This document shows positions 586 to 32,000 of a DNA stretch of 32,000 nt, one piece after another (position 1 is the stretch's first letter; every line of letters starts with the position of its first letter). The notes below the pieces were generated by a model, which was not told the DNA's origin, searched no databases, and worked only from the letters and a program-made list of their open reading frames with translations. Made by a program: the position numbers and the translations under genes. The DNA is from Nostoc punctiforme PCC 73102 (GTDB lineage: Bacteria > Cyanobacteriota > Cyanobacteriia > Cyanobacteriales > Nostocaceae), in assembly GCF_000020025.1 (NCBI RefSeq), contig NC_010628.1:3480001-3512000 (forward strand), written 5' to 3'.

Positions 586-1143
586 CTAGAAAAGTTTACT
601 CACTAAGCAGGTGAAACCAGGTAGCAAAGGACTTGTCAGTTCATCTTGACTAAATAGAGTAGCTGCTAACTTTAATGCAGCCTGTTCACGACGATAAACT
701 TCAACTTTCTTCTGTATAGAATCGCAAATCCAATATTCCTGAACTCCTTGCACCGAGTAAAGCTTTAGCTTTGTTTCTCTGTCGCGTTTCTCATTCTTTT
801 CACCGGGTGAGAGAACTTCTACTACTAACTCCGGTGCGCCTGTGAGATGTCCAGCTTCATCTAGTAAGTGTTTTAAGCGTTCATGACTTGCCCATACCAC
901 ATCAGGGATCACATTGTCAGAATCTGAGAAAATAATTCCAGGTGCGATCGCAGCTTTACCTAAACCAGTTTCATCTGACCAATTGTTAAGAACTGTAACA
1001 ATATTGCCACAACTTGATTGATGATCCCAACTAGGTGATTTAGTCACAAATAGTTCTCCATCAATAATCTCATAGCGATTTCTGCGATCGCCAGCGAATA
1101 ACTCTAGATCATCTGTCGTCCAACGCACTGGAGTTGTTTGCAT
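586..1143 (-). CDS. Uma2-family (DUF820) putative endonuclease
   Basis: 185 aa. Layout typical of the cyanobacterial Uma2/DUF820 family: RYEIIDGELF near the N-terminus, a PD-(D/E)xK-like core (IPDVVW ... PELVVEVLSPG), and a C-terminal KLKLYSVQGVQEYWI. Confidence 0.8.
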   Translation of the reverse strand: MQTTPVRWTTDDLELFAGDRRNRYEIIDGELFVTKSPSWDHQSSCGNIVTVLNNWSDETGLGKAAIAPGIIFSDSDNVIPDVVWASHERLKHLLDEAGHLTGAPELVVEVLSPGEKNEKRDRETKLKLYSVQGVQEYWICDSIQKKVEVYRREQAALKLAATLFSQDELTSPLLPGFTCLVSKLF

Positions 1144-11537: not shown

Positions 11538-11597
11538 ATTGATAAAAATATGTTTAAGTTATTATTAACTGAACTGCCTTGATATAGGAATAAACTT

Positions 11598-11633
11598 AAA
11601 TGCTCACCATAGCTGGTGAGCATTTATACTTTT
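11598..11633 (+). terminator. Rho-independent-type terminator
   Basis: A 12-bp perfect stem aaatgctcacca / tggtgagcattt with a 4-nt loop, followed by atactttt. Confidence 0.65.
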
Positions 11634-11876: not shown

Positions 11877-12761
11877 ATGAACCAAGAAAAATCAGACATT
11901 TGTTTTTGCACTTTAGCTTTAGGGAAAAGATATCGCTCTCATGCTTTCCTATTAGCTCAAGATATTGAAAAATATTCGCCAGGAGTATATTTAATTCTCC
12001 TAACAGATAAGCCAGAAGAATTTAAAATATATCTTAACGTTTTAGCATTTAAACATGAACAACAGAGCATTGGTTGTTACCACGATAAAAGGTTTGTAAT
12101 TGCCAAAGCCATATCACTGTTTAATACTTGTATATTTGTCGATGCAGATATCAGAATATTAGATAAGTTACAACCAGATATAAAATGGCTTCCTGGTATA
12201 ACAGCAAGAAGTTGTACCAGTATTGCCAAACACAATCAAGAATATATTAATTCAGCAAATGATGATTACAAGGCAAATAGAGTTAGAGATTTGACCATTC
12301 TGAGCAAACTAGCACAAAAACTAGGCCTGGATTTAGAAGATACTAATATTCAGTTTGTCATGGAAATGTTATTTGTAGTTACAAGGCAAAATGGGCGTGA
12401 AATCGAATTTATTAAGCAATGGGAAACTATAGCAATTTACTGTGAGTTAAATGGTTTTTATAGTGCTGAGGGTTATGCAATAGGATTAGCTGCTGCTAAG
12501 GCTGGATTGCCAGTTCGATGGGATGCTATGGACGGTATTGTTTATTTCAAGGATTGGGTAGAACGGCAAAAAATCAAAAAGGGACAAGCAAATCCAGATG
12601 AAACGCTGATATATTTTCAACAGCACGAAGCGATTGAATACCACAAAAATTCGATTTCCCAAAAGCTATTGCATAAGCTAAATAAATTTATTGGTTATTA
12701 CTATCGGTCCTTGCGTTTAAGACTTGCGGCATTGAGTAATTTTAATTTTTATCACCGATGA
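11877..12761 (+). CDS. Hypothetical GT-A-like (DxD) nucleotide-sugar transferase, convergent to the glycosyltransferase operon
   Basis: 294 aa. GT8-style N-terminus (ICFCTLALGKRY...) and a DxD motif, CIFVDADIRIL. No TM segments. The functional call is tentative. Confidence 0.45.
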   Translation: MNQEKSDICFCTLALGKRYRSHAFLLAQDIEKYSPGVYLILLTDKPEEFKIYLNVLAFKHEQQSIGCYHDKRFVIAKAISLFNTCIFVDADIRILDKLQPDIKWLPGITARSCTSIAKHNQEYINSANDDYKANRVRDLTILSKLAQKLGLDLEDTNIQFVMEMLFVVTRQNGREIEFIKQWETIAIYCELNGFYSAEGYAIGLAAAKAGLPVRWDAMDGIVYFKDWVERQKIKKGQANPDETLIYFQQHEAIEYHKNSISQKLLHKLNKFIGYYYRSLRLRLAALSNFNFYHR

Positions 12762-12814
12762 AACTTTGGAAAAACATCAACAAGCTGATTTAATTGGCAT
12801 TCTTTGCTGAATTA

Positions 12815-13852
12815 TTAGTAACCATTAATTTTATCCTTGAAGTTACGATACTTTAATTTAATATTGTTTACTCTTTGCTGAATAAAACTACTAGTAGACT
12901 TTTGCAAAAGCGTTATCTGGCTTGGGCGGGTAAAACTTTGAGGCCGTTTTTCAGGCGACTTTAAATAGCGATAATATAAGAAAACATCGCGGTAAGGGAT
13001 ATCTACATCTTCACCTCCACAAAGCCGCACAAAAGCTGAAGAAGATACACTCATATAGTGTAAGTAGGTCAATTTCCGCCCTTGGTCAAAGAGGATATTA
13101 TCTACTACATCAAATTTAGAACTCCAGTGATTACCAGTTGCCTGCTCGCAGTCATGAAAAGCAAAGTTATAATAGGAAATTCCACTTCTCAACACCATGT
13201 AGTTAAATAAAGATTGGTCAGGTGCTAAAAAAGCCATGACATCTGCCTCACCCGATATTAATTTGCCCATTAAATCGGCTCTTATCGCTGGAGGAAAAAT
13301 ATTTTTCTTGGTTGCAAACCAACCAGCACAAAATACTTTATCTTGCAATTTTTCTGAATTGAAAATTTGCTGCATTTGCTCTGGTGAACCATCAAAAATA
13401 AATTTTAAGTCAGACTTATATTGAAAATCATTGACTACCCAATCAGATGTATCTAATTGTTCATATACATAATCTACTGGCCCCATTAACAAGGTATCTG
13501 CATCAAAATAAATAAATCTATCAAAGGGGCCATCCACAGCACAAAATTTGCGGTGCATTGGTAACTCATAGAGTTCTGAAAAACCCCACTCTCGCCAAGT
13601 TCTTTGCGCTCTAGGATAATTTTTCCATATCTGAGTCGCAAAGTTATCCCAATAAGCTATGGAATCAGAATCTTCAAATAAGCTGACATTATCTCTAGAT
13701 GCAATCTCTGCTTTCACCTTATCTAAGCGCTGATTATATGGAAGTATACAAATAGGAATTTTCCTACCAGCATTAGCTTCTATACTGTTGAGCAATGCTA
13801 CTAGTTGATCATAGACAACATCATTGGCTAGGATGTAAATACCATCAATCAT
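12815..13852 (-). CDS. GT8-like DxD glycosyltransferase-family protein, tandem paralog 1
   Basis: Start set at ATG 13852 (MIDGIYILAND...), with AGGAG about 8 nt upstream; the ORF track extends to 13888. Motifs: ALLNSI, FIYFDADTLLM (DxD), FCAGWF, PDQSLFNY, YLHY, YRDVFLYYRYL. Clearly homologous to the next two genes. Confidence 0.65.
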   Translation of the reverse strand: MIDGIYILANDVVYDQLVALLNSIEANAGRKIPICILPYNQRLDKVKAEIASRDNVSLFEDSDSIAYWDNFATQIWKNYPRAQRTWREWGFSELYELPMHRKFCAVDGPFDRFIYFDADTLLMGPVDYVYEQLDTSDWVVNDFQYKSDLKFIFDGSPEQMQQIFNSEKLQDKVFCAGWFATKKNIFPPAIRADLMGKLISGEADVMAFLAPDQSLFNYMVLRSGISYYNFAFHDCEQATGNHWSSKFDVVDNILFDQGRKLTYLHYMSVSSSAFVRLCGGEDVDIPYRDVFLYYRYLKSPEKRPQSFTRPSQITLLQKSTSSFIQQRVNNIKLKYRNFKDKINGY

Positions 13853-13868
13853 TGGGATACTCCTAATA

Positions 13869-14759
13869 TTAAGTGCGGGCAGCAACAAAAGGAAATAAGC
13901 GGCGAGTCAGTTTGGAGATGAAAGCGAATTTACCCTCATGGAGATAGCGATAGTGTTCCCACAATTGCCAATAGGGACTACCAGTTTTCATCCGCGTACC
14001 AGCCCAGTGGAGATATTTTAGTCGTTGTCCTCGGTCATAGAGGGCATAATCTTGCTGTTGGAAACTTTGTGAACCCGCCCAACTACCAGGCCCACCACCA
14101 GGAATTTTGACGAGGTTTCCTCGTTTGTCAATCAGTTTGAGAACAAGATAATTTAAAATTGGTTGGTCTGTAACTCCTTCAGAAAAATCGAAATATTCAC
14201 GATGCGCTGCACACTCGCGCAAAGCTTCATCCATCTGTTCTTCGGTAATAACTCCTTTTCTCGAAGCCCAAAACCCACTGTTGAAAACATCTTGAAGTTG
14301 AGCATCAGAAAAAAGTTGCTGCTCTTTCACAAATGGGGAAAAGATATTTCGCAGTTTGTCATTGGCATAATGGTAATCACAACAGAAGAAATCAACTTCT
14401 GAAAGTTTGTCTAAATTGTCGGCGATTTTTTCAAAAACGACAATATCTGTATCAATATAAATAAATTCATCTAAAGGACCAAACCACGCAACTAGTTTAC
14501 GCATTTTGTTTGGTAAGGCAAGGAAATCTCGATCAAAAATTTCTCCGATGCGTTTAGTAAATTTATCAATAAGTTCCAAATCTGGGAAAATTTGCACTTT
14601 GTGTAAGGTAGAAAGCTGTTCTGCTACCTTGTGATAATTTTCGTTAAATGGTATTAGATAAATGGTTACTTCTGGATCGTAGTAACGAATACTATTTAGT
14701 AAAGCGATCGCATTATCAATAACACGATCGTTGGCAACAATATAAATTCCCCTACTCAT
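13869..14759 (-). CDS. GT8-like DxD glycosyltransferase-family protein, tandem paralog 2 (most divergent)
   Basis: 296 aa. Motifs GIYIVANDRV..ALLNSI, FIYIDTDIVVF, FNSGFWASRK, TDQPILNY, YLHWAG, WEHYRYL. Start lies 3 nt after the upstream stop. Confidence 0.65.
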   Translation of the reverse strand: MSRGIYIVANDRVIDNAIALLNSIRYYDPEVTIYLIPFNENYHKVAEQLSTLHKVQIFPDLELIDKFTKRIGEIFDRDFLALPNKMRKLVAWFGPLDEFIYIDTDIVVFEKIADNLDKLSEVDFFCCDYHYANDKLRNIFSPFVKEQQLFSDAQLQDVFNSGFWASRKGVITEEQMDEALRECAAHREYFDFSEGVTDQPILNYLVLKLIDKRGNLVKIPGGGPGSWAGSQSFQQQDYALYDRGQRLKYLHWAGTRMKTGSPYWQLWEHYRYLHEGKFAFISKLTRRLFPFVAART

Positions 14760-14762
14760 AAA

Positions 14763-15743
14763 TTATCCTTGGTTAATTAACTTAAGTTTTCGCAAAGCTC
14801 TTGTAAGTAAATTTGGTACTGGAGCGTCATTATAATTCTTCGGAGGGTTTTGAAAGATGGGACGCTTATCTGGTTCGTTTAAGTAACGATAGTAGAGAAA
14901 TAAATCTCGATAGGGAAAATCAATATTTTCTCCAGCACAGACTGCTTGATTAATATTAGGAGGGATACCAATATAATGAAGGTAGGTTAGCCGATTACCT
15001 TTGTCATAAAGAAGGTGTTCTCGTTCCTCGAAGTGCTTAGATGTGGCGGAACATCCTGTCTTTGCATTATCTGGTAGTTGACGAGCAAAGTTATAAATAT
15101 AAAGATTAGACCTCATTACCATGTAGTTTATCAGTGGTTGTTCTCCAGCACCGCCATACAAAATTTCCGCCTCACCATTTTGTAAATGCGATATTAGTAA
15201 ATCTCTTTGTTCTGAGTTAAATGTTCCTCGTTTTGCACCATAGAAACCGGAGCAAAAAATTTCAGAATCAATCCGCTTTTGCTCGAAAACTTCTAGTAAT
15301 TTTGGCGAGTTAACATTATATATCTTACTAACGTCTTTAAATTGGAAATCGTAGACAACAAAATCATACGTATCTAGCTTTTCAAACACCGATGTCAGAG
15401 AATTCATCACCAAGGTGTCTGCATCTAAATAGATAAATTTATCGAATGGCCCATCAAAGGCGCAAAAACGCCGATGAGCGCCATACAACCGTGATTTACT
15501 CCGATTCAATCGCTCTGGTGCTGCTGAGAGCATAAATTGATCCCAACGGTTGATTGATTCTTGATTATCGTAAAGAAATACATTAGGTCGTTTAGCTATT
15601 TCATCAGCAATTCGCTGTGTCTGATCGTCGAAAGGATAGATACAAACAGGAATTTCGGGGCCCAAGATAACATCAATACTGTTGAGCAAAGCCACCAGTT
15701 GATCGAAAACATAATCATTGCCAAGGGTACAAATACCATTCAT
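14763..15743 (-). CDS. GT8-like DxD glycosyltransferase-family protein, tandem paralog 3
   Basis: 326 aa. Motifs GICTLGNDYVFDQLVALLNSI, FIYLDADTLVM, FCSGFYGAKR, GEQPLINY, YLHYIG, YRDLFLYYRYL. Start lies 3 nt after the upstream stop. Confidence 0.65.
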   Translation of the reverse strand: MNGICTLGNDYVFDQLVALLNSIDVILGPEIPVCIYPFDDQTQRIADEIAKRPNVFLYDNQESINRWDQFMLSAAPERLNRSKSRLYGAHRRFCAFDGPFDKFIYLDADTLVMNSLTSVFEKLDTYDFVVYDFQFKDVSKIYNVNSPKLLEVFEQKRIDSEIFCSGFYGAKRGTFNSEQRDLLISHLQNGEAEILYGGAGEQPLINYMVMRSNLYIYNFARQLPDNAKTGCSATSKHFEEREHLLYDKGNRLTYLHYIGIPPNINQAVCAGENIDFPYRDLFLYYRYLNEPDKRPIFQNPPKNYNDAPVPNLLTRALRKLKLINQG

Positions 15744-15746
15744 AAT

Positions 15747-16706
15747 TTATGAGTGTTGATCGACAAAGTTTGATAACCAGTTAAGTAAGTTTAATTTATG
15801 TAGAATAATTTGACGTGCTTCTGCGATCGCATCTTTGGCAGCATACCAAGCATCAGGTGTAGCCGTCACTTCTTGGATGTAGGCAATACCTTTTTCATCT
15901 AAACTGGGCAACCGCAAAAAACTACCCGGTGGCAATAATTTATCAGCAGCAGGGCCACCATAGTAGATTGGTAGACACCAGGCAAGTAAACTATCCCAAA
16001 GTTTCTCACTGACATACCAATTATTGTCAGCATAATTTTCAATTGCCAAATTGTAATAGTATGGTGCCATCCCATACCATTTGTTACCTAGCTCTCCCGA
16101 TTTTTTAGCCGATTCTGGTAGGTTACGCCCATATAAATCAAATTTCATGCCACTAGATTGTAGGGACTGTAAAAAGTCTAAACGCTGGCGATGTTTGGCT
16201 GTACGACTAATTCCCGAAGTAATCCAACTGCATGGGGCAACCTTTTCAGGTGGAGGCATTTCATTTAAATCTTGAAATGAATTTGAATGATACCAAATAG
16301 CAGGCATATAGTCAGGAGTCGGGGCAAAATCATCGGGGCCAGAAATGTAGCCGCAATACTTCTGGGCTTGTTGATAATTATGATTAGTTGTTTCGACAAT
16401 TTCATCTAAAGGCGGTTCCCTTAGCAAATAAATAATCCGATCTTTGTTGATACCACGCAGTAGAGAATCAACATTTACTACTGATTTTTGCTGCCGTTTG
16501 CGAAAGCTATCTAACCAAGATTTTTGTGGCGCTGCTTGGGGAAAATCAAATTGATACATCAGTAGAAAATCTGGTTTAGTTGCTAGTGACTGCATTTGCA
16601 TATTGCCCCAAACTCCAAATTGATGAGGGGTTTGTTGCCACAGCCAATCGGCTCTAGTTTCTAAACCTCGATAGCTGCTAATCATTCCTACAGTTTTTAT
16701 AGTCAT
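15747..16706 (-). CDS. GT10-like glycosyltransferase (alpha-1,3/4-fucosyltransferase-type C-terminal domain)
   Basis: 319 aa. YNLAIENYADNNWYVSEKLWDSLLAWCLPIYYG matches the GT10 pattern FENSxxxxYVTEKxxDxxxxxxxPIYxG. Confidence 0.65.
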   Translation of the reverse strand: MTIKTVGMISSYRGLETRADWLWQQTPHQFGVWGNMQMQSLATKPDFLLMYQFDFPQAAPQKSWLDSFRKRQQKSVVNVDSLLRGINKDRIIYLLREPPLDEIVETTNHNYQQAQKYCGYISGPDDFAPTPDYMPAIWYHSNSFQDLNEMPPPEKVAPCSWITSGISRTAKHRQRLDFLQSLQSSGMKFDLYGRNLPESAKKSGELGNKWYGMAPYYYNLAIENYADNNWYVSEKLWDSLLAWCLPIYYGGPAADKLLPPGSFLRLPSLDEKGIAYIQEVTATPDAWYAAKDAIAEARQIILHKLNLLNWLSNFVDQHS

Positions 16707-16747
16707 TTTAGTTATTAGTCATTTGCCATTTATCTTCTAGATTCTTT

Positions 16748-17971
16748 TTATGCGATAAATAGGGGTAGCAGAGATTCATCAACATAACTAAGAATTTTTG
16801 CGGCTCGATTTTCCCAAGAAAACTGCTTGACAAATTCGATACTATCTGGATAACCTTCTATTTTTCTAGGATGAGTTTCTAAAACCTGCTTCAGACTTTC
16901 GGCAAATTTGCTCGGGTTATCTGGTTCACACCAAGCAGCGATCGCTTTTGTATCTTGAAACTCAACTAATGAAGGGATTTCCGTCGAGACAATAGGAGTT
17001 CCAGAGGCGAAGTAGTCAAACAGCTTTAAAGGAGATGTGAAAGTTGCCGCTTTTCCCGAACAATGAGGGTGAGCTAAAACATCCGCTGCTTGTAGCAAAG
17101 ATGCTAACTCATTATGCAAGACATAGCCCAAAAATTGAATATTATAAACCTGTTTTTCTTTTACCAATTGCTGATAATATTCTACTTCTGCTGGCTTACC
17201 ACCTGCACAGGCAAATTGCACATTAGGCATTTCGTTAGCCACATCAATTAGTACATCAATACCTTTAAATTGCTGTAACGCTCCCGCATAAACTACCAAT
17301 TTTTGGTTTTCATCTCGCAATAGTTTTTGTCGCCATTCTGCGGCTTTTTCTGGTTGTCTCTGCATAAACAAGCGATTGAAACCATTGTGCAACTTAATTA
17401 CTTTTTCTGGCGGCATCCCATTTTTAATCATGCTTTCACGGATTGTTTCTACAACGGTGACAGCTATTTGTAAGAGTGGATTTGTAACAATTTCTTGCTC
17501 AAATGGTTTCTCTTCATGGTGGTGGTGTTCATAAATTGCCGGAATGCCATTTTTGATGGCAGCTTTGACAAAATTCCAGTTGCGACTGTGGACAAGTTTA
17601 GTACTTGGAAGTATATGAAATGGTAAATAATACTTGCTTGCAATAGTGTTGGAGTCAGTAAATTTGCTCGAGAAATGGTCAATCGGCCAAGGCATCGGTA
17701 ATGGAGCAACTTTTAACTTGTCATGGAGATTGTAATATTCAATAAGTTCTGTTGGTGTTTTTATCGGTTCAAAAGGACGCAGTAAATTAATTGGGTTATT
17801 AGCTTTCACTCCTTTATCAGGGTATACCAAAACTGTTGAGTATCCTAAGTTAGCGGCGGCATTAGCTGCGTTTGTAGACTGCACTAGGTGAGCCTCTGGC
17901 TGAGGTAATTCTTCACCAATGAAAAAAATATAGTGTTTTTTTAAAGTATTAGTTTCCATAATTTTAGACAT
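16748..17971 (-). CDS. GT4-family (GT-B fold) glycosyltransferase
   Basis: C-terminal GT-B signature (LAHPHCSGKAATFTSPLKLFDYFASGTPIVST). The start is ambiguous: ATG at 17971 overlaps the ABC stop, ATG at 17959 (METN...) lies 4 nt after it, and the ORF-track TTG is at 17986. Confidence 0.8.
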   Translation of the reverse strand: MSKIMETNTLKKHYIFFIGEELPQPEAHLVQSTNAANAAANLGYSTVLVYPDKGVKANNPINLLRPFEPIKTPTELIEYYNLHDKLKVAPLPMPWPIDHFSSKFTDSNTIASKYYLPFHILPSTKLVHSRNWNFVKAAIKNGIPAIYEHHHHEEKPFEQEIVTNPLLQIAVTVVETIRESMIKNGMPPEKVIKLHNGFNRLFMQRQPEKAAEWRQKLLRDENQKLVVYAGALQQFKGIDVLIDVANEMPNVQFACAGGKPAEVEYYQQLVKEKQVYNIQFLGYVLHNELASLLQAADVLAHPHCSGKAATFTSPLKLFDYFASGTPIVSTEIPSLVEFQDTKAIAAWCEPDNPSKFAESLKQVLETHPRKIEGYPDSIEFVKQFSWENRAAKILSYVDESLLPLFIA

Positions 17972-20288
17972 TAATATTATCCTCAAATGTTTCTAAACTC
18001 TTCAAAAGACATATCGCAGATTCATAAGTTTCACTAACTAATTCATTTGGCTCTTCTTGGGGAGTATCTATAAAATTATCTGCTAGAGAGCGGAGAGAGC
18101 TAAGTATGAGATTCAGAGAAGTTCTAAACTCAACTGAGAGATGATTAAAGCTTTGATAATAGTTACTGATGACATTTTGATTTTGGTCAGAAATTGAAAG
18201 AATCTGCCCCCTTATTTGTAAGTTAATCACATCCTCAAAAATATCAATGGTGTTGAGAATTCTCCAGGCTGATTTATAAGAGTCTTCAATTAGTTTGTGC
18301 CGTTCTTGAGAATCGTCTCCCAGATCATCAAGTAATAAGTATAGGAACCCAATCATCGAGTTCAACTGTGTCCGAATTTCGTGAGAGATGCGGAGCGAGC
18401 TTTGATTGTGTTTAGTAGCGGCTTCAGGACGATCGACAAATTTCTTTGAGTTTAGGCGCATTGCCTTAAGAATTTTTGTCTGAATCAAGTTTTTATTAGG
18501 GCGATCGCTAAATTGCATTGAGTACAGGCGTGAGTAGTAAGCACCTTTTTGCAAAAGTTCTTCATGGGTTCCCACTTCTACTACCTGTCCTTGATCTAAT
18601 ACAGCTATTTGATCGGCTTTTTGGACTGTAGAAAGGCGGTGAGCAATAACTAGGGTGGTGCGATCGCGACTAAGATCGTCAAGTGCAGATTGTACTAATC
18701 GTTCGGAAACGGTATCTAAAGCGCTGGTGGCTTCATCTAAAATCAGAATTTCGGGATTTTGGAGGAGGGCGCGGGCGATCGCTAATCTTTGCCTTTGTCC
18801 ACCAGACAACATTACCCCGCGATCGCCAATTAGGGTGTCAAATCCTTGAGGCAATTTGCTAATAAACTCATAAGCATTTGCCCGCTTTGCTGCTGTCAAA
18901 ATCTCATCGTCAGTAGCCTGTGTTCGCCCATAAGCGATGTTATTTTGCACTGAGTCATTAAAAAGAAAGGTATCTTGACTGACAATCCCCATCCGCTTCC
19001 GTAGGGATACTAGATCGAACTCCCGCAAATCGGTGCCGTCAATGGTAATACTGCCAGCGATCGGGTCATAAAATCTGGGTAAAAGGTCTGCCAAGGTAGA
19101 TTTACCAGCCCCAGAACCGCCTACCAATGCTAAGGTCGTACCACGCGGTAAATATAAATTTACATCTTTGAGTACCAACTTTTCATGACCAGGGTAGGCA
19201 AAGCAAAGAGAATTAAAAGACACTCCCTTTTCTAATTTTGTGTAGGGAAGCTTACCTTTCTCCATGAACGGCTTATCGTGCAAGCTCAAAAACTCATTCG
19301 TCACATCCACACTAGCTGCGGTACTGGCAAAGTTGCTGCGAATAGTATTTAACTGAGAAATCAATGGCAGTACTCGCAGCAGCACTAATAAATATGTCAA
19401 TAGTACGGTAGAAAGCGAAGAAACCTGTTGAGCAAAGAAGGTTTTGCTCAAAAGTACAATCAGCAGTAAAGCTGTAATACCCATTACCTCACTTAGAGGT
19501 GTAATGGCTTCCGAATTAACTTGAGATTGGAAATCTGCTAATTCGCGATCGCGAATTAGTTTTTTAATCCGTTGATATTCTTTTTCTTCATTTCCCGTCG
19601 ATTTTACCAATCGAATTCCGTTCAGAGTTTCCAGTACGGAGACAGAATATGCTCTAGACATCTCACTCAGCTGCTTCCCAAAATTTCTTGACCGGGAAAT
19701 AGCATACTGGTTTACTAACGTCACCAACGATAACAAAAGCGTAGCAGCAATTGTCAACTGCCAAGAAATTGACAGCAACAAACTGACAAAAACTAAAATT
19801 GTGATTGCCAGGATAACTATCTTGACGATACTACCTATAGAACTTGCAGACCGACCAATTTCTCCACCAAGACGGTTGATTAAATCTCCGACCTTAGTTT
19901 TGGCATAATAATCTATATCAATTTCTAGTAATAGCTTTAACCCAGTTTCGCGCATATCTGATGTTAGCTTTCGGGTTAAAGAACTCGATGCTAATGAACT
20001 GGCATAAGTAGCTAAATTCTTTAAAATAATTGTGAAAATAATCGCCCCAGCCATTACTCCTATCCGGTAAGGCTCTGGAGTATTATCAAAGGGAGATATC
20101 ATCGTTTTTAGGATAGGAGGAGCAGTACTTAAATCTACTTCTTGTCCCACGATTTTTAAAACCACTGGCACAATTAAAGCGGTGCTAATCCCATTAAATA
20201 AAGCTCCAGAAAATCCTAACAATATTGTCAGTAGAATCAAACCTGGATAGGGCCTAGCGAATCGTAATAGCAGTTTTCTGGTAGACAT
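17964..20288 (-). CDS. ABC exporter half-transporter (6-TM domain + NBD, MsbA/PglK type) with a C-terminal tandem HisKA/DHp-like extension
   Basis: 774 aa. N-terminal TM domain, Walker A GGSGAGKST, signature LSGGQRQR, Walker B ILILDEATSALD. After the NBD ends (...YSMQFSDR, about aa 590) the tail has an H-box LRISHEIRTQLNSMIGF (His636, nt 18381-18383) and a second, degenerate copy LSVEFRTSLNLILS (Val719). Confidence 0.9.
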   Translation of the reverse strand: MSTRKLLLRFARPYPGLILLTILLGFSGALFNGISTALIVPVVLKIVGQEVDLSTAPPILKTMISPFDNTPEPYRIGVMAGAIIFTIILKNLATYASSLASSSLTRKLTSDMRETGLKLLLEIDIDYYAKTKVGDLINRLGGEIGRSASSIGSIVKIVILAITILVFVSLLLSISWQLTIAATLLLSLVTLVNQYAISRSRNFGKQLSEMSRAYSVSVLETLNGIRLVKSTGNEEKEYQRIKKLIRDRELADFQSQVNSEAITPLSEVMGITALLLIVLLSKTFFAQQVSSLSTVLLTYLLVLLRVLPLISQLNTIRSNFASTAASVDVTNEFLSLHDKPFMEKGKLPYTKLEKGVSFNSLCFAYPGHEKLVLKDVNLYLPRGTTLALVGGSGAGKSTLADLLPRFYDPIAGSITIDGTDLREFDLVSLRKRMGIVSQDTFLFNDSVQNNIAYGRTQATDDEILTAAKRANAYEFISKLPQGFDTLIGDRGVMLSGGQRQRLAIARALLQNPEILILDEATSALDTVSERLVQSALDDLSRDRTTLVIAHRLSTVQKADQIAVLDQGQVVEVGTHEELLQKGAYYSRLYSMQFSDRPNKNLIQTKILKAMRLNSKKFVDRPEAATKHNQSSLRISHEIRTQLNSMIGFLYLLLDDLGDDSQERHKLIEDSYKSAWRILNTIDIFEDVINLQIRGQILSISDQNQNVISNYYQSFNHLSVEFRTSLNLILSSLRSLADNFIDTPQEEPNELVSETYESAICLLKSLETFEDNINV

Positions 20289-20600
20289 TGGGTATTTCTA
20301 TGCAATTTTCACTTATTAATATTATTCACAAATCACTTGCCAAACTTGCTAATATCAAATAAAACAAAACTAAATAATTTTCAATATCCCAACAAAAGAA
20401 GCAGTTATTGCTGGAAGAATATTGCCCGATCGCAAGGGGAGATTACAAGAGCGATTTTTTCCTGTCGCCATCAAAGTTAGCTTGTGGTTTGAGTCCTCAC
20501 AACTTTTGTATGGCCTCAATTTACCCAAGATTGAACCCCCAACTGAAAAGTTCCTCTACCTCCCACTTTCTTCAATTTACGCTTCCTTCCATATTAATAT

Positions 20601-21764
20601 TTACAACTGAGAAATTACCGACTTTAATACCGAAGCCATAGCCTCTATACTATAGTGTTCTACACATCTTTTTCTGGCGTTGATACCTTGCTGGTTTGCT
20701 GACTCTAAATTCTGAAAAATCCATTGAATCTGTTCAGCAATCTGCTCAGGACAAGCAGGATCGACTAAATAACCAGTATCACCTAATATTTTGGGAATAT
20801 CTCCAACGCGCGTTGATAATACAGGTTTAGCCATTGCCATTCCATCTGTCAACTTCAGGGGAAATTGAGCGCGAGTTTCTGGGGTATCTCGTTGGGGAAC
20901 AACTACAATGTGAGCTGCTGCTACTAAATCAGGCATTATATCCGCTGGATATTTTGGTAATTTGATAATCCAGCGTCCCCATTTTCGTTGAAGTTGCCGA
21001 TCGTAATCATCATAAGGACTGCCACCTACAATCACTAGTCTTAAGTCTGGTTGATTAATTTTATCGAGCGCTATGAGAACATCTTCTAGACCTTTGTAGG
21101 GTCTTGGCGCACCAGGAAACATTAAAATACGATATTCAGATAAACCATAACGATTTCTGCTGGACTCAGCATCATATCGAGCAGGATCAAATAAAGCAGT
21201 ATCCTTACCATTGGGAACAAATGTACCCCCAAAACGCTGCTGCAAAAATTTAGTATGCACCGTCACCGCATCAGCACTATTTACCAAACCTTCCATCCAT
21301 TTTACGTATAAAGGATGATAAGGATTCCTGAGTGCGCCGTCTGATTTAAACAAGTCCCTGACTAATTGTTTGGGTGTGAAACGATAATGCCAGTCATCGC
21401 CACCATACCAACTGAGTTCCCAATCATCTATGTCTAAAATTAATGCTTTTTGGCTAAATATTTTCTTGAGTAGGGCGACTCCAAAACTCGCTATTTGTGG
21501 TTTTATTGCATAAATTATATCTCCATTGATTTTTGGTAAAAATTTGTGAATTTCTCCGAAAAAATCGGGAAAATTTTTACCCGGCAAATTATAAACGTTT
21601 AATTCTGATGGCAAATTTCGATATAAGTTATTTCCAAATAAAAACCCCATGATTTCAACTTCGTATTCTAAGTTTCTTAGGGCTGTTGCTATCAAGTATG
21701 CACGCAAAATAGCTGCACTTGATAAATCTGAAACCAACAGCGATATCTTGGAAAAATTTTTCAC
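20601..21764 (-). CDS. GT4-family (GT-B fold) glycosyltransferase
   Basis: 387 aa. C-terminal GT-B donor-binding region (VVVPQRDTPETRAQFPLKLTDGMAMAKPVLSTRVGDIPKIL). Confidence 0.8.
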   Translation of the reverse strand: MKNFSKISLLVSDLSSAAILRAYLIATALRNLEYEVEIMGFLFGNNLYRNLPSELNVYNLPGKNFPDFFGEIHKFLPKINGDIIYAIKPQIASFGVALLKKIFSQKALILDIDDWELSWYGGDDWHYRFTPKQLVRDLFKSDGALRNPYHPLYVKWMEGLVNSADAVTVHTKFLQQRFGGTFVPNGKDTALFDPARYDAESSRNRYGLSEYRILMFPGAPRPYKGLEDVLIALDKINQPDLRLVIVGGSPYDDYDRQLQRKWGRWIIKLPKYPADIMPDLVAAAHIVVVPQRDTPETRAQFPLKLTDGMAMAKPVLSTRVGDIPKILGDTGYLVDPACPEQIAEQIQWIFQNLESANQQGINARKRCVEHYSIEAMASVLKSVISQL

Positions 21765-21782
21765 TGTTTTTATACTTAATAT

Positions 21783-22625
21783 TTATTTAATGCGCCAAGG
21801 ATTTGTAACTTGATTCGGTAAAAATACTTTAGCGAATCTGTCAAAAACCCTTGTATATAAGGAACGACTAATATCTTTAGCATATTGAGGCCGATAAGGA
21901 TAAGTACAGTGAAGAACTTTAATTGTATCCTGAATATCATAAGCATCCTGCCACTTGCTGAGATAATTATAGGTTGGTGGTAAGATTTTCTTATGAGGTT
22001 GTACAGATGCGATCGCAGAAGCAAAAGCCCCTTGATCTTTTAAAAGCAATTTATCTTGATTATTTTTGACAATCTCAAAATAACGTTTAAATTCGTCAAA
22101 AAATATTTTGGTTACTTCAGTTTTCCGAAAAGCCATAAAACCGCCATTATACTGCACACTATCTGCTTGTAATGGTAATCCTACCGATTGCAAAATTGGC
22201 AGAACGTTTGGCAAAAGTTCTTCTTGTTTACCACGTAATAAGTTTGTAGCTTTAAGAATAGAAGGTTGCACATCTTCGGTTAGTAAAAACTCATATTCAT
22301 CTAAATAGTCAAATACATCATTGATGTTTGTAAGTAAACAAATATCTGAATCTAGGTAAATCGTTTTATCAAACTCAGAAGCCTCATATAGAGCCAATTT
22401 TGCTTGCCGCGATGCTAAAACAGTATTTTCGTTTGCTGGTGCTGGTTTTAAAATTACATTTTTGAACGCCTTAAGCAAGGGATAAAGAACTATTGGAACT
22501 TGGTCAATTAAAATAATGATTGGCTCTTGATGAAACTTTCTGACTGCTGCTAAAAAATGAATACAATCTTGAAACGAGTAAAGCCCAGTTAGAATTGTAA
22601 TAAAACCTTTAGTTGGTGTTGACAT
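21783..22625 (-). CDS. GT8-like DxD glycosyltransferase-family protein (first gene of the operon)
   Basis: 280 aa. Ordered GT8-type motifs TIYLDSDICLL, YNGGFMAFRK, KDQGAFAS, VLHCTYPYRP. No TM segments. Confidence 0.6.
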   Translation of the reverse strand: MSTPTKGFITILTGLYSFQDCIHFLAAVRKFHQEPIIILIDQVPIVLYPLLKAFKNVILKPAPANENTVLASRQAKLALYEASEFDKTIYLDSDICLLTNINDVFDYLDEYEFLLTEDVQPSILKATNLLRGKQEELLPNVLPILQSVGLPLQADSVQYNGGFMAFRKTEVTKIFFDEFKRYFEIVKNNQDKLLLKDQGAFASAIASVQPHKKILPPTYNYLSKWQDAYDIQDTIKVLHCTYPYRPQYAKDISRSLYTRVFDRFAKVFLPNQVTNPWRIK

Positions 22626-24781: not shown

Positions 24782-27412
24782 ATGGCTGAAGAACTTAATT
24801 TTAAAGGCGATGGTAGCGATCGCCTCCCCCCACAAAATATTGAGGCCGAAGAAGCGATTTTGGGGGGTATTTTGCTAGATCCAGAAGCGATTAGTCGAGT
24901 TAGCGATCGCCTCCTTCCCGAAGCTTTTTACATTAGCGCCCATAAAGATATTTATCAGGCAGCTGTGAGGCTCCACACCCAAGGTAAACCAACAGATTTG
25001 CTCTCAGTCACAAGTTGGCTAACTGACCATGAGATGCTTACCCGCATAGGCGGCAGAAATAAACTAGCAACTCTGGTAGACCGCACAGTCTCAGCCGTGA
25101 ACATCGATGCCCTCGCAGGGTTGGTGATGGAAAAATACCTGCGGCGGCAGTTAATTAAAGCTGGCAATGAAATTGTACATCTTGGTTACGAGACAGAAAC
25201 CGAGTTACCAACTGTTTTAGATCAGGCAGAACAGAAAGTATTCGGCGTAACCCAAGAGCGTCCACAGTCAGGTTTAATTCACATTTCTGATACTCTAATT
25301 AATAATTTCCAGGATATCGAGGATCGAAATCAAGGCATCGCCTTACCTGGTGTTCCCTGCGGATTTTACGATTTAGATGCCATGACCAGTGGCTTTCAAC
25401 GCTCTGATTTGATTATTGTCGCGGGCCGCCCATCAATGGGGAAAACCGCATTTTGCTTAAACCTTGCTCATAATATAGCTGCTTCTTATAAATTACCAGT
25501 TGCTTTTTTCAGCTTGGAAATGTCCAAAGAGCAATTGACACAACGTTTATTAGCCAGTGAAGCGCAAATTGAAAGTAGTTATCTGCGGACTGGTCGCCTC
25601 AGTCAAACACAATGGGAACCTTTAAGCCGTGCTATTGGTATCCTTTCCGAGATGCCAATTTATATTGACGACACGCCGAATATTACAGTTACACAAATGC
25701 GTAGTCAGGCAAGAAGGCTGCAAGCGGAAGTTGGAACTGAATTAGGATTAATTGTAATAGATTACTTGCAATTGATGGAAGGAGCAGGCGATAATCGCGT
25801 ACAAGAATTATCAAAAATTACGCGTCAACTCAAAGGTTTAGCGCGGGAATTATCTGTACCAGTTATTGCTTTATCTCAGTTAAGTCGAGGGGTGGAAGCG
25901 CGTACTAATAAGCGTCCGATGTTGTCAGATTTGAGAGAATCTGGTTGTTTAGCAGGCGATAGTCTGGTGACATTAGTAGATAGCGGACTGCAAGTGCCAA
26001 TTAAGGAATTAGTAGGTAAATCTGGTTTTGCAGTTTGGGCATTGAACGAAGCTACAATGCAGCTAGAAAAGGCAATTGTTAGCAATGCTTTTTCGACTGG
26101 TATAAAGCCTCTGTTTACTTTGACAACTCGATTGGGGCGGAAAATCCGTGCCACAGGTAATCACAAGTTTTTAACAATTAATGGCTGGAAAAGACTTGAT
26201 GAATTAACTCCTAAAGAACATCTCTGTTTACCAAGAAATCTCCCCAGTTCTGGTAAACAAACTATGACTTATGCCGAAGTTGCATTATTAGGGCATTTAA
26301 TTGGCGACGGTTGTACATTGCCACGTCATGCCATACAGTACACTACCAGAGAAATAGATTTAGCTCAGAATGTTGCTTTCTTGGCAACAGAAGTTTTTGG
26401 AGACTCAATTGTTCCTAGAATTTCACCTGAACGTGAGTGGTATCAAGTTTACTTATCCGCAGCACAGCATCTAACTCATAGTGTTAGAAATCCAATAGCC
26501 AAATGGCTAGACTCTCTGAATGTTTTTGGTTTAAGGTCTTACGAAAAATTTGTACCTCGAGAATTGTTCTCACAACCCAAAGAGTTAATAGCGTGCTTTC
26601 TAAGACACCTTTGGAGTACAGATGGTTGTATAAACTTAATTGCAGGAAAAAAGCCAAGACCTATTGCATTTTATGCAAGCAGTAGTGAGAGACTAGCTTT
26701 TGATGTACAGACACTTTTATTAAGGCTTGGTATTAATGCAACACTAAGGACAGTTCCTCAAGTTGGCAAAGGTAGAAACCAATATCATGTAATAATTACT
26801 GGTAAGCCCGATCTTCAGTTATTTATTGTTCATGTTGGAGCAGTAGGACAATATAAGCTACGTTCACTCCAAGATATTTTCCAACACCTTGAAAACAGTA
26901 TTCACAACCCTAATAGAGATATAATTCCGAAGGATATTTGGAAAATGGAGGTTGTACCTGCGATGCAAGCTATTGGCTTCACCACACGGATATTACAAGC
27001 CTCCATTGGAGTTTCGTATTGTGGCTCTACTCTTTACAAAGTAAATTTAAGTCGAGAAAGAGCTTTAAAAGTTGGCAACATTGTTCAATCATCTAAACTG
27101 GTTACTCTTGCCAAAAGTGATGTTTATTGGGATGAAATAGTTTCAATTGAATATAGTGGTGAGGAAGAAGTGTTTGACCTCACCGTTCCTGGTTTGCATA
27201 ATTTTGTTGCAAATAATATTATTGTTCACAATTCCATTGAACAAGACGCGGATTTAGTAATAATGTTGTATCGCGATGAATACTACTCTCCCGATACTCC
27301 CGATCGCGGCATTGCAGAAGTAATTATAGCTAAACACCGCAACGGGCCTACAGGGACAGCTAAACTTTTGTTTAATCCACAGTTTACAAAGTTTCAAAAT
27401 TTAAAAATTTAG
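24782..27412 (+). CDS. dnaB: Replicative DNA helicase DnaB, interrupted by an intein (876-aa precursor, 447-aa mature)
   Basis: N-terminal PPQNIEAEEAILGGILLD, Walker A GRPSMGKTAF, and VIDYLQLM. The extein junction RESG / SIEQDADLV is restored once the intein is removed. Confidence 0.95.
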   Translation: MAEELNFKGDGSDRLPPQNIEAEEAILGGILLDPEAISRVSDRLLPEAFYISAHKDIYQAAVRLHTQGKPTDLLSVTSWLTDHEMLTRIGGRNKLATLVDRTVSAVNIDALAGLVMEKYLRRQLIKAGNEIVHLGYETETELPTVLDQAEQKVFGVTQERPQSGLIHISDTLINNFQDIEDRNQGIALPGVPCGFYDLDAMTSGFQRSDLIIVAGRPSMGKTAFCLNLAHNIAASYKLPVAFFSLEMSKEQLTQRLLASEAQIESSYLRTGRLSQTQWEPLSRAIGILSEMPIYIDDTPNITVTQMRSQARRLQAEVGTELGLIVIDYLQLMEGAGDNRVQELSKITRQLKGLARELSVPVIALSQLSRGVEARTNKRPMLSDLRESGCLAGDSLVTLVDSGLQVPIKELVGKSGFAVWALNEATMQLEKAIVSNAFSTGIKPLFTLTTRLGRKIRATGNHKFLTINGWKRLDELTPKEHLCLPRNLPSSGKQTMTYAEVALLGHLIGDGCTLPRHAIQYTTREIDLAQNVAFLATEVFGDSIVPRISPEREWYQVYLSAAQHLTHSVRNPIAKWLDSLNVFGLRSYEKFVPRELFSQPKELIACFLRHLWSTDGCINLIAGKKPRPIAFYASSSERLAFDVQTLLLRLGINATLRTVPQVGKGRNQYHVIITGKPDLQLFIVHVGAVGQYKLRSLQDIFQHLENSIHNPNRDIIPKDIWKMEVVPAMQAIGFTTRILQASIGVSYCGSTLYKVNLSRERALKVGNIVQSSKLVTLAKSDVYWDEIVSIEYSGEEEVFDLTVPGLHNFVANNIIVHNSIEQDADLVIMLYRDEYYSPDTPDRGIAEVIIAKHRNGPTGTAKLLFNPQFTKFQNLKI
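25946..27232 (+). mobile_element. DnaB intein (429 aa) with a LAGLIDADG homing-endonuclease domain
   Basis: Block A CLAGDSLVTL (Cys1 at 25946), block B ATGNHKF, LAGLIDADG motifs LLGHLIGDGC and FLRHLWSTDGC, blocks F/G VFDLTV...NIIVHN, then Ser+1 (27233). In frame; 1287 nt. Confidence 0.92.
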
Positions 27413-30153: not shown

Positions 30154-31245
30154 TCAGAGATTTATGGAAGTGTAGATATCATCCGAGTTTGGATTTAGGT
30201 AAGGACGTTGCAATTCAATTTCCCATAATGAAAAATGCCGCAGAATTGCTGCTATCTTATCTGCTGGCGTATCATTTCCTAGATGCCAAGCTTCAAGCAA
30301 ACCATTAGCAACAATTTGGCATCGATGTGTACCAAAACTTTCATGATCGCCAAATTTACGGTCTGGTTCTTCAGCGATCGCTAACCCTGGTGCTATAAAC
30401 TTGGTAAATAAAGGTACTTGCTGCTGAAAATGCACTTGATTTTCTTTATATACCCTCTCTAAGACTGGACGAACAAGTTCATAATCCTTTTTGTCAAAAT
30501 AAAGAACTGCTGAGTCGTAACGCCCATAATCAGAAGGGTTGTACAATGCTTTAAATGAGAAGGCAATGGATATAGCATTGAGTTGGCTAGTCAAATCGTT
30601 CATGACTGCAACTGAGCCTTCGGGGGTCAAATTGAAGTAGACACGTACCAAAGTTTGATAATTTCGAGCCATAGCTGCATTAGCAATTGCCATATAAAAT
30701 CCGTTTTGCACCAGATTCTTAGGCATTTTGATTGCTATTGAGTCACCAATATTAGCAGCTTGTTGTAAGCTATCGGGTTCAACGTGCACCCTCAAACCGT
30801 TCTTATGCACCACCAAACTACCATCTAAGTCTTCTTTTAGAACCAGCCAATTATCATTCCAGTAGCCTACACCTCTGTTATTTTCATGCAAGCGATCGTA
30901 AAAAGCTATATCTACACCAAATAGTGTATTGTTTTCGATATCTTGGTTTAAAGCCAAATTTGCTGCTTCTTTATTGGATGACGGAAGACTTTTCAATGAG
31001 CCATTGTAGTATAAGGCGTAAAGTATACTACGTAATTGATGACTCAAAAACTTATTTTGAAAATCTAAAGATAATTGTTGAAAGTGAGAGACTATTGATT
31101 CTGGTACTTCCACCGGGCCAAACTCTGGATGTCTAATACAATGGTAAGACTGGATTTCAACCTTATGAACGATATCTCGTAGTGATGTCTGCAATGACTC
31201 TGGAATATCTGATATTTGATTTGCCAGCGAATCTAATAGTTGCAT
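30154..31245 (-). CDS. Conserved hypothetical protein, possibly HopA1-effector-family-like, co-transcribed with the upstream kinase
   Basis: Long ORF. Start set at ATG 31245 (MQLLDSLANQ...), which avoids a 47-nt overlap with the kinase gene; the ORF track extends to 31371. The HopA1-like guess rests on size, the kinase neighbour and remembered motif patterns (RVYFNL...FKALYNPSDYGRYDSAVLYF) and is not verified. Confidence 0.6.
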   Translation of the reverse strand: MQLLDSLANQISDIPESLQTSLRDIVHKVEIQSYHCIRHPEFGPVEVPESIVSHFQQLSLDFQNKFLSHQLRSILYALYYNGSLKSLPSSNKEAANLALNQDIENNTLFGVDIAFYDRLHENNRGVGYWNDNWLVLKEDLDGSLVVHKNGLRVHVEPDSLQQAANIGDSIAIKMPKNLVQNGFYMAIANAAMARNYQTLVRVYFNLTPEGSVAVMNDLTSQLNAISIAFSFKALYNPSDYGRYDSAVLYFDKKDYELVRPVLERVYKENQVHFQQQVPLFTKFIAPGLAIAEEPDRKFGDHESFGTHRCQIVANGLLEAWHLGNDTPADKIAAILRHFSLWEIELQRPYLNPNSDDIYTSINL

Positions 31246-31324
31246 AGAAACTTGCCTGTCAATAATGTGGAGAGATAGGGACAGACAAACAAAAAATGTT
31301 TGCGTCCCTTTGTTGACTTGGAAT

Positions 31325-32000
31325 TTATTTTGAAGCGGGAGATAAATTAATGGGAGAGAGGTCTGATGCATCTACACCAAAAATTGTTGGTATCGATGCT
31401 TCTGGACGGCATAATAAACTTTTAGCAACCTGGAGTATGCAAATACCTTTATTACCAAAAGTTTTTTCGTGCTGGAGTTTGGCTTGAATAGATTTAATCA
31501 AAGCGAAACCGCAAAACTGCATAACTCTCTGTAAAAAATCAGGATGAAGTTCTATAATTTCGGGGAAAGCAGAGAGGTAAGCAATCACCAACTCTCTAAT
31601 AGAAGGTTGCAGCAAATGTAGAGGAGTTGTTGCTAGACGTAAAGACTCTTGAATCGCCATTGTTTTACTGGTAATCATACTGTGTAGCCAAAGTTGTAGA
31701 TAGCTGGCTATCAGTGTTCCTAAATCACTAGCTGGATCTCCCCAAGCGCCACGTTCCCAATCAATCAATCGAATAATACTCTCATCTGAGGACGATTCAT
31801 TAAAAGCAGCTTCTTCCCAATTCAGGGAGAGGAGAATATTGTTTAGTTTCAGATCGTTATGGGTTAAACAACAGGGAATCAAGGCATTATTCAACTCTGC
31901 GATCGCCTGCCCTAGGCTATCATAACGTTGATAAAGAGACAAAAATTTTAGTCCATCGGTAGGTAACTTACCAAAAACTGCCGGGGAAACTCTATCCATT
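31325..32000 (-). CDS. Aminoglycoside-phosphotransferase/CotS-like protein kinase-fold enzyme (C-terminal part; N-terminus lies beyond the window)
   Basis: Catalytic loop THNDLKLNNILL and metal-binding IDWERGAWGDPASDLG (HxDxxxxN ... IDxE/D), typical of the APH/choline-kinase-like fold. The ORF is open to the window edge. Confidence 0.8.
   Translation of the reverse strand, partial: MDRVSPAVFGKLPTDGLKFLSLYQRYDSLGQAIAELNNALIPCCLTHNDLKLNNILLSLNWEEAAFNESSSDESIIRLIDWERGAWGDPASDLGTLIASYLQLWLHSMITSKTMAIQESLRLATTPLHLLQPSIRELVIAYLSAFPEIIELHPDFLQRVMQFCGFALIKSIQAKLQHEKTFGNKGICILQVAKSLLCRPEASIPTIFGVDASDLSPINLSPASK

Follow-up and report, generated by a model that had tools for sequence, protein, structure and literature searches.

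What kind of glycan could be built and exported by genes for eight glycosyltransferases (GTs) and a single ATP-binding cassette (ABC) exporter when no priming transferase or polymerase is encoded beside them? The question is raised by a 32,000-nucleotide (nt) stretch of Nostoc punctiforme PCC 73102 DNA (contig NC_010628.1, positions 3,480,001 to 3,512,000; hereafter the window), in which a sequence-only reading had described an orphan nine-gene glycosylation locus that does not fit the classical Wzy- or ABC-2-dependent polysaccharide pathways. The gene cluster, although uncharacterised, belongs to a recognisable type and is no pathway anomaly of the sort that was proposed. With confidence slightly better than even, we consider it a conserved cluster of filamentous cyanobacteria, in which a lipid-linked, probably fucosylated heteroglycan is built wholly on the cytoplasmic face of the inner membrane and then flipped.

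All nine open reading frames (ORFs) of the sequence-only reading were recovered at the positions it gave (Table 1), and so was the close packing of the eight minus-strand genes, whose spacers, measured on the longest ORFs from R2821a up to g280, are -20, 3, 3, 41, -23, 312 and 18 nt. When the gene-caller starts from identical contigs are taken (products of 345 and 407 amino acids (aa)), the two overlaps become +16 and -8 nt. The convergent gene g294 is separated from its neighbour by 53 nt.

Table 1. Features of the glycan locus (coordinates are positions in the window)
Feature	Coordinates	Strand	Assignment
g280	21783..22625	-	accessory GT-A (GT8-like) transferase, DSD motif; leads the operon in haplotype A only
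GT4_387	20601..21764	-	GT4 (GT-B) glycosyltransferase, core
intergenic gap, 312 nt	20289..20600	-	upstream of the ABC gene
ABC exporter, residues 1-594	18507..20288	-	six-transmembrane-segment type-I (ABCB/MsbA-type) membrane domain and nucleotide-binding domain
ABC exporter, residues ~595-774	17964..18506	-	two tandem DHp (HisKA)-like helical modules, without HATPase_c
GT4_412	16748..17986	-	GT4 (GT-B) glycosyltransferase, core but dispensable in some genomes
GT10 gene	15747..16706	-	GT10-family putative alpha1,3/4-fucosyltransferase, core
R2821c	14763..15743	-	NF045582 (Npun_R2821/R2822 family) GT-A, GT8-like; most conserved core gene
R2821b	13869..14759	-	second NF045582 paralogue, DTD motif
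R2821a	12815..13888	-	third NF045582 paralogue, DAD motif; likely start at ATG codon 13, giving 345 aa
g294	11877..12761	+	convergent accessory GT-A transferase, DAD motif, cyanobacteria-restricted family; no fixed member of the locus

The conservation of the cluster was assessed by tblastn comparison of 16 window proteins with 91 loci; the underlying genome scan retained 80 loci, all from close Nostoc relatives, and more distant synteny was followed through exact-protein look-ups. Every one of the nine genes has orthologues in other genomes (55-100% identity); many public contigs match the locus proteins at 100% identity, and Nostoc sp. LEGE 12450 matches them at 94-100%. The three NF045582 genes, the GT10 gene, the ABC gene and GT4_387 were detected in every one of the 91 loci that reaches them, and in Nostocales the cluster always lies between GloB-L9-DnaB and the 124-aa protein plus ABC1 kinase. 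The core order GT4-ABC-GT4-GT10-c-b-a is also kept in Cylindrospermum PCC 7417, Limnospira platensis and one Microcoleus genome at 55-71% identity; with the neighbouring ABC1 kinase at 73% in Microcoleus, this puts the core roughly on a level with a housekeeping gene in conservation. The locus is thus a seven-gene core that is syntenic across Nostocales and Oscillatoriales rather than an orphan, and the notion of a nine-gene unit gives way to that of a core with two variable accessories, g280 and g294, at its ends.

An orthologue of g280 is present in Microcoleus (67% identical), g294 occurs in only 28 related loci (49-96% identity), and a g294 homologue in Symploca stands alone among housekeeping genes. 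Elsewhere, the locus edges carry alternative GT4, GT2, GT8 and GT11-like genes, a second GT10 gene, Acyl_transf_3 and PIG-L deacetylase genes. The L. platensis core (L087/L088, 1-17000) has around it sulfotransferase genes, two pyruvyltransferase genes, one for an acyltransferase and additional GT4 genes, and the Microcoleus version adds a GT11 gene, a Branch-family gene and a methyltransferase gene. In addition, contigs binned as metagenome-assembled genomes of Acetobacteraceae, Chroococcales and Actinomycetota (L013, L036 and P0077) bear cyanobacterial gene sequence of this kind, 91-94% identical to Nostoc in the L013 and L036 loci and 71% in P0077; the likeliest source is cyanobacterial DNA of mixed (possibly lichen) metagenomes that was mis-binned.

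Within Nostoc, 77 loci could be compared, of which 44 belong to a window-like haplotype A and 31 to a haplotype B with a divergent central cassette, two being unassignable. Median identities to the window, given for A and B in turn, are 88% and 70% for the ABC gene, 90% and 56% for GT4_412, 88% and 63% for GT4_387, and 86% and 69% for R2821a; the corresponding values are 95% and 95% for R2821b, 92% and 91% for R2821c, and, in the flanks, 95% and 94% for the ABC1 kinase and 97% and 97% for L9. The g280 gene (90% in A) is found in 43 of the 44 haplotype-A loci and in none of the 31 haplotype-B loci. The allele classes span 86-97% and 63-70% identity for GT4_387, 84-97% and 53-57% for GT4_412, and 81-97% and 64-70% for R2821a, for which gene callers use the 345-aa form; GT4_412 is absent from six loci, including that of Cylindrospermum PCC 7417. 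The Cylindrospermum locus resembles haplotype B, which suggests either an old polymorphism or exchange between genera. We read the dimorphic cassettes between flanks that are 94-97% identical as the probable mark of diversifying selection on a surface antigen, of the kind seen in serotype loci. The same pattern explains the distribution of low GC. The locus had been described as more AT-rich than its flanks, and a modest overall dip does exist (GC 0.378 against 0.419 and 0.406); it is not a trait of the whole locus, however, as the lowest values are found mainly in the exchangeable edge genes g294 (0.340) and g280 (0.336), together with the intergenic DNA.

Pfam searches confirmed the predicted two GT4 enzymes, one GT10-like enzyme and one type-I ABC half-transporter. 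Membership of GT4 was judged by a score above the gathering threshold of Glycos_transf_1 or Glyco_trans_1_4, and both candidates qualify: GT4_387 matches Glyco_trans_1_4 at E 7.8e-21 (75.3 bits) and Glycos_transf_1 at E 7.1e-19 (68.4 bits), and GT4_412 matches Glycos_transf_1 at E 4.4e-19, scoring 69.1 and 69.0 bits against Glycos_transf_1 and Glyco_trans_1_4, respectively. GT4_387 was found in all loci that extend to its position, and is 62-63% identical in Limnospira and Microcoleus. The GT10 protein, which is 65-66% identical in the same two genera, carries a C-terminal Glyco_transf_10 domain (PF00852; E 9.9e-11, 42.1 bits against a cut-off of 23.9) and matches the solved plant FucTA (9s6a, 1.4e-8) and H. 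pylori alpha1,3-fucosyltransferase (2nzw, 8.8e-5) over YNLAIENYADNNWYVSEKLWDSL, so that both the family domain and the C-terminal region conserved among solved alpha1,3-fucosyltransferases are present. It may therefore be regarded as a putative fucosyltransferase. A fucosylated product, as had been suggested, is plausible, albeit unproven: besides these matches, GT11-like genes and second GT10 genes appear in alternative versions of the locus, which supports a fucose-rich product.

The remaining five transferases had been labelled DxD/GT8-like proteins. Their glycosyltransferase character was upheld by sensitive methods, whereas the GT8 label is not reached by Pfam alone, as all five fall short of the PF01501 gathering score of 24.3 bits (R2821c 20.4 bits, g280 18.1 bits, no match for the other three). 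The three tandem genes at 12815-15743 belong to NCBIfam family NF045582, with whole-protein scores of 409.9 (R2821a), 336.2 (R2821b) and 411.5 bits (R2821c) against a curated cut-off of 250; g280, at 28.5 bits, is not a member. A profile of 16 R2821-family sequences aligned with a true Pfam-GT8 protein encoded at a related locus, the match running from the DxD motif as far as the conserved His (hhalign probability 81%, E 1.2e-5), and its weak matches in the Protein Data Bank (PDB) are all GT8 enzymes. Moreover, about 20 orthologue clusters of R2821c have a precomputed Pfam GT8 (PF01501) match. An exhaustive search returned 668 clusters of NF045582/R2821 relatives at 50% identity, and distant members pass the Mannosyl_trans3 or GT8 thresholds (e.g., P0288, 27.1 bits against PF01501) or carry fused GT2 domains. 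The accessory protein g280 has sub-threshold matches to Pfam GT8 and Nucleotid_trans and aligns with the R2821 family profile at 93% hhalign probability. For g294, no Pfam or NCBIfam match was found, and its hhalign probability against the R2821 profile is 1%, which gives no link by sequence alone; its AlphaFold2 model (pLDDT 93.9, pTM 0.90), on the other hand, was matched by Foldseek to glycogenin (GT8), ABO transferases (GT6), UGGT and WbbM as top hits (E ~1e-6, TM-score 0.35-0.47). The structure model of R2821c, built from a 12-sequence alignment, was unusable (pLDDT 49.6), and no fold search was performed on it. As the DxD motif is invariant in the alignments, the R2821 family and g280 appear by profile comparison to be GT-A transferases, and g294 is predicted to be one from its modelled structure.

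Conservation is particularly high in this family. R2821c is 70-71% identical to its Limnospira and Microcoleus orthologues, and R2821b keeps its position with 86-99% identity across Nostocales and 66-67% in Oscillatoriales. The three paralogues hold both the c-b-a order and their separate identities across cyanobacterial orders, suggesting that the triplication is old and that the copies are probably not redundant. In agreement with the view that all transferases are soluble, hydropathy analysis revealed no convincing transmembrane segment in any of them. Two marginal hydrophobic stretches were seen (Kyte-Doolittle 1.65 in the 326-aa protein and 1.86 in the 280-aa protein), and hhalign places the one in g280 over the N-terminal core conserved in the R2821 family, so we read it as strands of the GT-A core.

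The exporter is a 774-aa protein, about 180 aa longer than MsbA. Its first 594 residues match ABC_membrane (2.8e-22) and ABC_tran (1.8e-35), and the Walker A (GGSGAGKST), signature (LSGGQ), Walker B (ILILDEATSALD) and H-loop (IAHRLST) motifs are all intact. MsbA is the best-matching solved half-transporter (343 bits, 1e-101). Among NCBIfam models, the top match is HepA_fam_ABC (NF045513) at 571.6 bits, below its equivalog cut-off of 725, followed by MsbA (TIGR02203) at 461.9 bits (equivalog cut-off 602) and PglK (NF050066) at 233.1 bits (cut-off 1000); bacteriocin and type-I secretion families match with lower scores. The type-I exporter architecture is shared with MsbA, and by these scores the protein appears to be an orthologue of none of the three. 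A 10-bp-stem palindrome at 19537-19560, within the ABC coding region, was picked up by the terminator scan; it is centred on GCGATCGC, which we take to be the cyanobacterial HIP1 motif, and is probably merely such a site.

A C-terminal extension of the exporter was overlooked in the sequence-only reading. The HepA model (610 positions) stops at residue 592, and the extension is covered by none of the HepA, MsbA and PglK models. It matches Pfam HisKA in two stretches (3.6e-10, 40.2 bits), contains an internal repeat (36% identity, E 9e-11) and resembles a histidine-kinase DHp domain in the PDB (7n0e, E 0.007). The protein ends after the second module with no HATPase_c domain following the HisKA modules, so it does not qualify as a histidine kinase. 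Among 88 orthologues, the SHE[IL]RT motif of module 1 is kept in nearly all those from Nostocales, in both haplotypes, and the His position of module 2 is occupied by V, A, D, I or S; in the Oscillatoriales Limnospira and Microcoleus there is only one module, bearing Tyr instead of His. A homologue search with the extension returned nine fragments, all of them attached to an ABC ATPase domain. The modules would most likely serve as a dimerisation or regulatory appendage. A more specific idea is that the conserved H-box His of module 1 in Nostocales is phosphorylated in trans, or that the module pairs with the DHp domain of a partner kinase, as RetS pairs with GacS, thereby coupling export to a two-component pathway; we think this quite unlikely, and to our knowledge it would be the first type-I ABC exporter with an in-built two-component interface. 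We likewise know of no description of a DHp-tagged type-I ABC exporter.

How these parts might work together depends in part on what is missing. The sequence-only reading had reported the absence of priming, polymerase, Wzm/Wzt, OPX/PCP and sugar-nucleotide genes, and indeed no phosphoglycosyl transferase (PGT), Wzx, Wzy, Wzz, ABC-2, OPX/PCP or nucleoside-diphosphate-sugar gene, and none for GDP-fucose synthesis, was found among the other large ORFs of the 32-kb window. The absence extends to the surroundings of 85 related loci, at which no priming transferase or polymerase is a consistent neighbour and no Wzx, Wzm/Wzt, OPX/PCP or sugar-nucleotide gene adjoins, and to the variable edges of more than 80 loci, in which no PGT, Wzx, Wzy, Wzz or OPX gene was detected. 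A Polysacc_synt gene was seen in Cylindrospermum only, beyond the ABC1 kinase. The gene families as a whole support the proposed glycan-assembly operon of soluble transferases with one MsbA/HepA-type exporter. The claim that such a set does not fit known pathways, in contrast, overlooks the Wzk/PglK route (PMC2841628) and lipid A-core assembly with MsbA, both of which need no polymerase and have the priming gene elsewhere or do not need one.

In the process that we favour, the acceptor would be either primed by an enzyme encoded elsewhere or a pre-existing membrane lipid. The core transferases (two GT4, one GT10 and three NF045582 GT8-like enzymes) would add sugars to it in turn, with further additions by strain-specific accessory transferases, here g280 and g294. 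The finished glycan would then be flipped by the dedicated MsbA/HepA-type half-transporter, comparable to Wzk, PglK and MsbA, and might be displayed at the cell surface in a form that resembles an O-chain, a core or a capsule/sheath and depends on the strain; the haplotype structure, too, suggests a surface antigen. In other genomes, the core has beside it genes for sulfotransferases, pyruvyltransferases and a methyltransferase, enzymes that use the cytoplasmic cofactors 3'-phosphoadenosine-5'-phosphosulfate, phosphoenolpyruvate and S-adenosylmethionine, and this fits complete assembly in the cytoplasm before export. Several points weigh against this account: a lipid acceptor is something we infer; the fucose donor is assigned from the family membership of the GT10 protein; the exporter scores below the HepA, MsbA and PglK cut-offs, so that its substrate is not readable from homology; and the product may be either an oligosaccharide of defined structure or, through iterative action of the transferases, a polymer.

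The combination of GT4 and GT8-like enzymes with a transporter whose best solved relative is MsbA (462 bits against TIGR02203) also recalls the core of lipopolysaccharide (LPS). In enterobacteria, WaaG belongs to GT4 and WaaO, WaaR and WaaJ belong to GT8. The transferases would then, like these Waa enzymes, extend a lipid A or lipid A-like anchor at the inner leaflet and the ABC protein would act as MsbA, flipping lipid A-core; no primer or polymerase would be needed, which would fully account for the "missing" genes, and the conserved R2821b and R2821c beside variable genes would resemble a conserved inner and a variable outer core. However, the exporter falls below the MsbA cut-off and is nearer to the HepA family, GT4_412 is dispensable in several genomes, and the Limnospira version implies sulfation and pyruvylation, for which we know of no precedent in LPS core. 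We therefore regard assembly of an LPS core as doubtful.

The same Limnospira genes bear on a second possibility, namely a capsular or released polysaccharide, in which some of the transferases would iterate to give a long polymer (sulfated and pyruvylated in Limnospira) that the ABC protein exports, much as HepA does with heterocyst envelope polysaccharide. The sulfotransferases and pyruvyltransferases flanking the Limnospira core, the HepA family as the top NCBIfam match of the exporter, and the resemblance of the g294 model to the polymerising enzyme WbbM, among other matches, are all consistent with a polymer. In addition, Maeda et al. (2021) suggested in passing, as a speculation, a gene cluster of the ABC transporter type for the sulfated capsular polysaccharide of A. 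platensis (PMC8205485). On the other hand, none of the genomes examined has an OPX/PCP or outer-membrane export component close to the locus, and eight single-domain transferases look more like the makers of a defined unit than a polymerase system. We give this polymer a low probability, about that of an LPS core; it overlaps with the flipped, lipid-linked heteroglycan preferred here, from which it differs only in the length and fate of the product.

A third possibility, which was raised as an alternative in the sequence-only reading, is that a protein, peptide or small molecule is glycosylated in the cytoplasm and exported by the ABC protein. MsbA-type ABC proteins do include peptide and drug exporters, the lower-scoring matches of this one include bacteriocin and type-I secretion families, and no lipid-priming gene is present. 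The 312-nt gap before the ABC gene is the only long one in the operon. Its length varies from about 20 to 420 nt across loci, it is conserved only in the last ~70 nt before the ABC start (column identity 0.45-0.72), it gave no Rfam match, and promoter-like sites in it are no more frequent than in shuffled sequence. A concealed peptide gene or RNA was therefore rejected. The gap probably holds an internal promoter or ribosome-binding site, the alternative being an unconserved spacer; the conserved ~70 nt would suggest an internal promoter allowing separate transcription of the ABC gene and the genes downstream. Furthermore, no conserved small ORF or precursor gene was found at or near the locus, the exporter is without a peptidase (C39) domain, no version of the locus contains genes for the biosynthesis of a small-molecule aglycone, and we consider accessories for sulfo-, pyruvyl- and acetyl-modification to be more typical of polysaccharides. 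A non-lipid acceptor thus seems very unlikely, and a lipid-linked heteroglycan is still the interpretation that we prefer.

The other large ORFs of the window encode a PTPS fragment, Uma2, PrsW, a methyltransferase, MscL, DUF3352, an M1 peptidase and ABC1 kinase, as well as GloB, L9, DnaB with an intein, FKBP, a phasin-like protein, a two-transmembrane-segment (2TM) protein, HopA1 and an APH-like protein. The 124-aa membrane protein was considered as a member of the system and rejected, the 124-aa neighbour in Limnospira being unrelated. Directly after its gene, a perfect 13-bp-stem hairpin with T-runs on both strands (11597-11626) is likely a bidirectional terminator that divides the housekeeping flank from the glycan locus. 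A link with defence systems was also rejected, as PADLOC returned generic ABC matches only. Some neighbouring genes deserve mention in their own right. The DnaB helicase gene (24782-27412, plus strand) is split by an intein with a LAGLIDADG homing-endonuclease domain, and the same is seen beside the Cylindrospermum PCC 7417 locus. At 30154-31999 (minus strand), a HopA1 effector-family domain (E 5e-60) is carried by a 405-aa protein that is encoded directly downstream of an overlapping APH/choline-kinase-like ORF. The family takes its name from a type III effector of a plant pathogen, and the pairing is odd for a cyanobacterium possibly living as a symbiont in lichens or plants. A putative restriction endonuclease gene of the Uma2 family (E 5e-37) lies at 586-1143 (minus strand), and four other Nostoc genomes have a Uma2-related 230-aa ORF in the variable edge of their glycan locus (e.g., L081, 12996-13688).

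Gliding, tolerance of desiccation, symbiosis and the encounter with phages and grazers all depend on surface glycans in filamentous cyanobacteria such as Nostoc symbionts, Microcoleus crusts and Limnospira ('Spirulina'), and few of the pathways that make these glycans have been genetically defined (hep, hps and synechan). The locus should be a useful, testable target for cyanobacterial glycobiology: it occurs in genetically tractable relatives, and Npun_R2821/R2822 of N. punctiforme are named in the title of the NCBIfam family. The two Nostoc cassettes between near-identical flanks would give a handle on strain-specific surface types, the sulfo- and pyruvyltransferases of the Limnospira version make it a candidate locus for the sulfated 'Spirulina' polysaccharide, and the DHp-tagged exporter is an unusual ABC architecture that merits structural study.

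A full-text literature search for Npun_R2819-2824 (and for the Npun_R281/282 prefixes) returned no paper, and the supplements of PMC6495340 and PMC12691664 contain no Npun_R281/282 tags. Comparison with known cyanobacterial systems, by NCBIfam thresholds, likewise bore out the view that the locus is not a characterised hep or hps locus. The HEP island of Anabaena PCC 7120 is similar in being a cyanobacterial transferase cluster with an MsbA-like exporter. Among its genes are hepC, for a priming transferase, and others that the present locus lacks. Unlike that island, the core also occurs in the non-heterocystous Limnospira and Microcoleus, and identity with hep was rejected on this ground and on the score of the exporter below the HepA cut-off. 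An hgl identity was rejected as well. The hps system resembles the locus in its conservation among filamentous cyanobacteria and in its fucose-containing product, as seen by staining with the lectin UEA; the UEA-reactive glycans of N. punctiforme have been attributed to hpsE-G (PMC6495340). However, hps is of the Wzx/Wzy type and includes minor pilin genes (PMC12288463), whereas the locus has no Wzx, Wzy or pilin gene and its GT4 proteins score 28.6-33.1 bits against HpsO/HpsP cut-offs of 550-575, so this identity was also rejected.

Outside cyanobacteria, the locus shares with the enterobacterial waa genes and MsbA both the soluble GT4 and GT8-like transferases and the division into conserved and variable gene blocks. 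In the enterobacterial system, soluble GT4 and GT8 enzymes build on a membrane lipid of the inner leaflet, which MsbA flips, and neither a PGT nor a polymerase takes part. It differs in that the present locus encodes no heptosyl- or Kdo-transferases and carries its transporter inside the transferase operon. The Wzk pathway of Helicobacter pylori appears to be the closest precedent. Its soluble transferases include GT10 and GT11 fucosyltransferases. WecA is encoded elsewhere, the Lewis-antigen O-chain is made in the cytoplasm, and the PglK-type ABC flippase Wzk exports it with no polymerase involved (Hug et al. 2010, PMC2841628). As with Wzk and Campylobacter PglK, soluble cytoplasmic transferases, a (here predicted) fucosylated glycan and a single MsbA/PglK-type half-transporter come together, and as with Wzk there is neither Wzy nor Wzx, here at the locus itself. 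The resemblance to PglK is one of pathway logic rather than orthology, given 233 bits against a cut-off of 1000. The H. pylori genes are scattered, whereas those of the present locus form one tight, conserved operon, and the exporter differs from the HepA, MsbA and PglK models in its DHp-like C-terminal extension. What sets the locus apart is its conserved seven-gene core with an ancient triplicated GT8-like family, its dimorphic cassettes and its DHp-tagged exporter.

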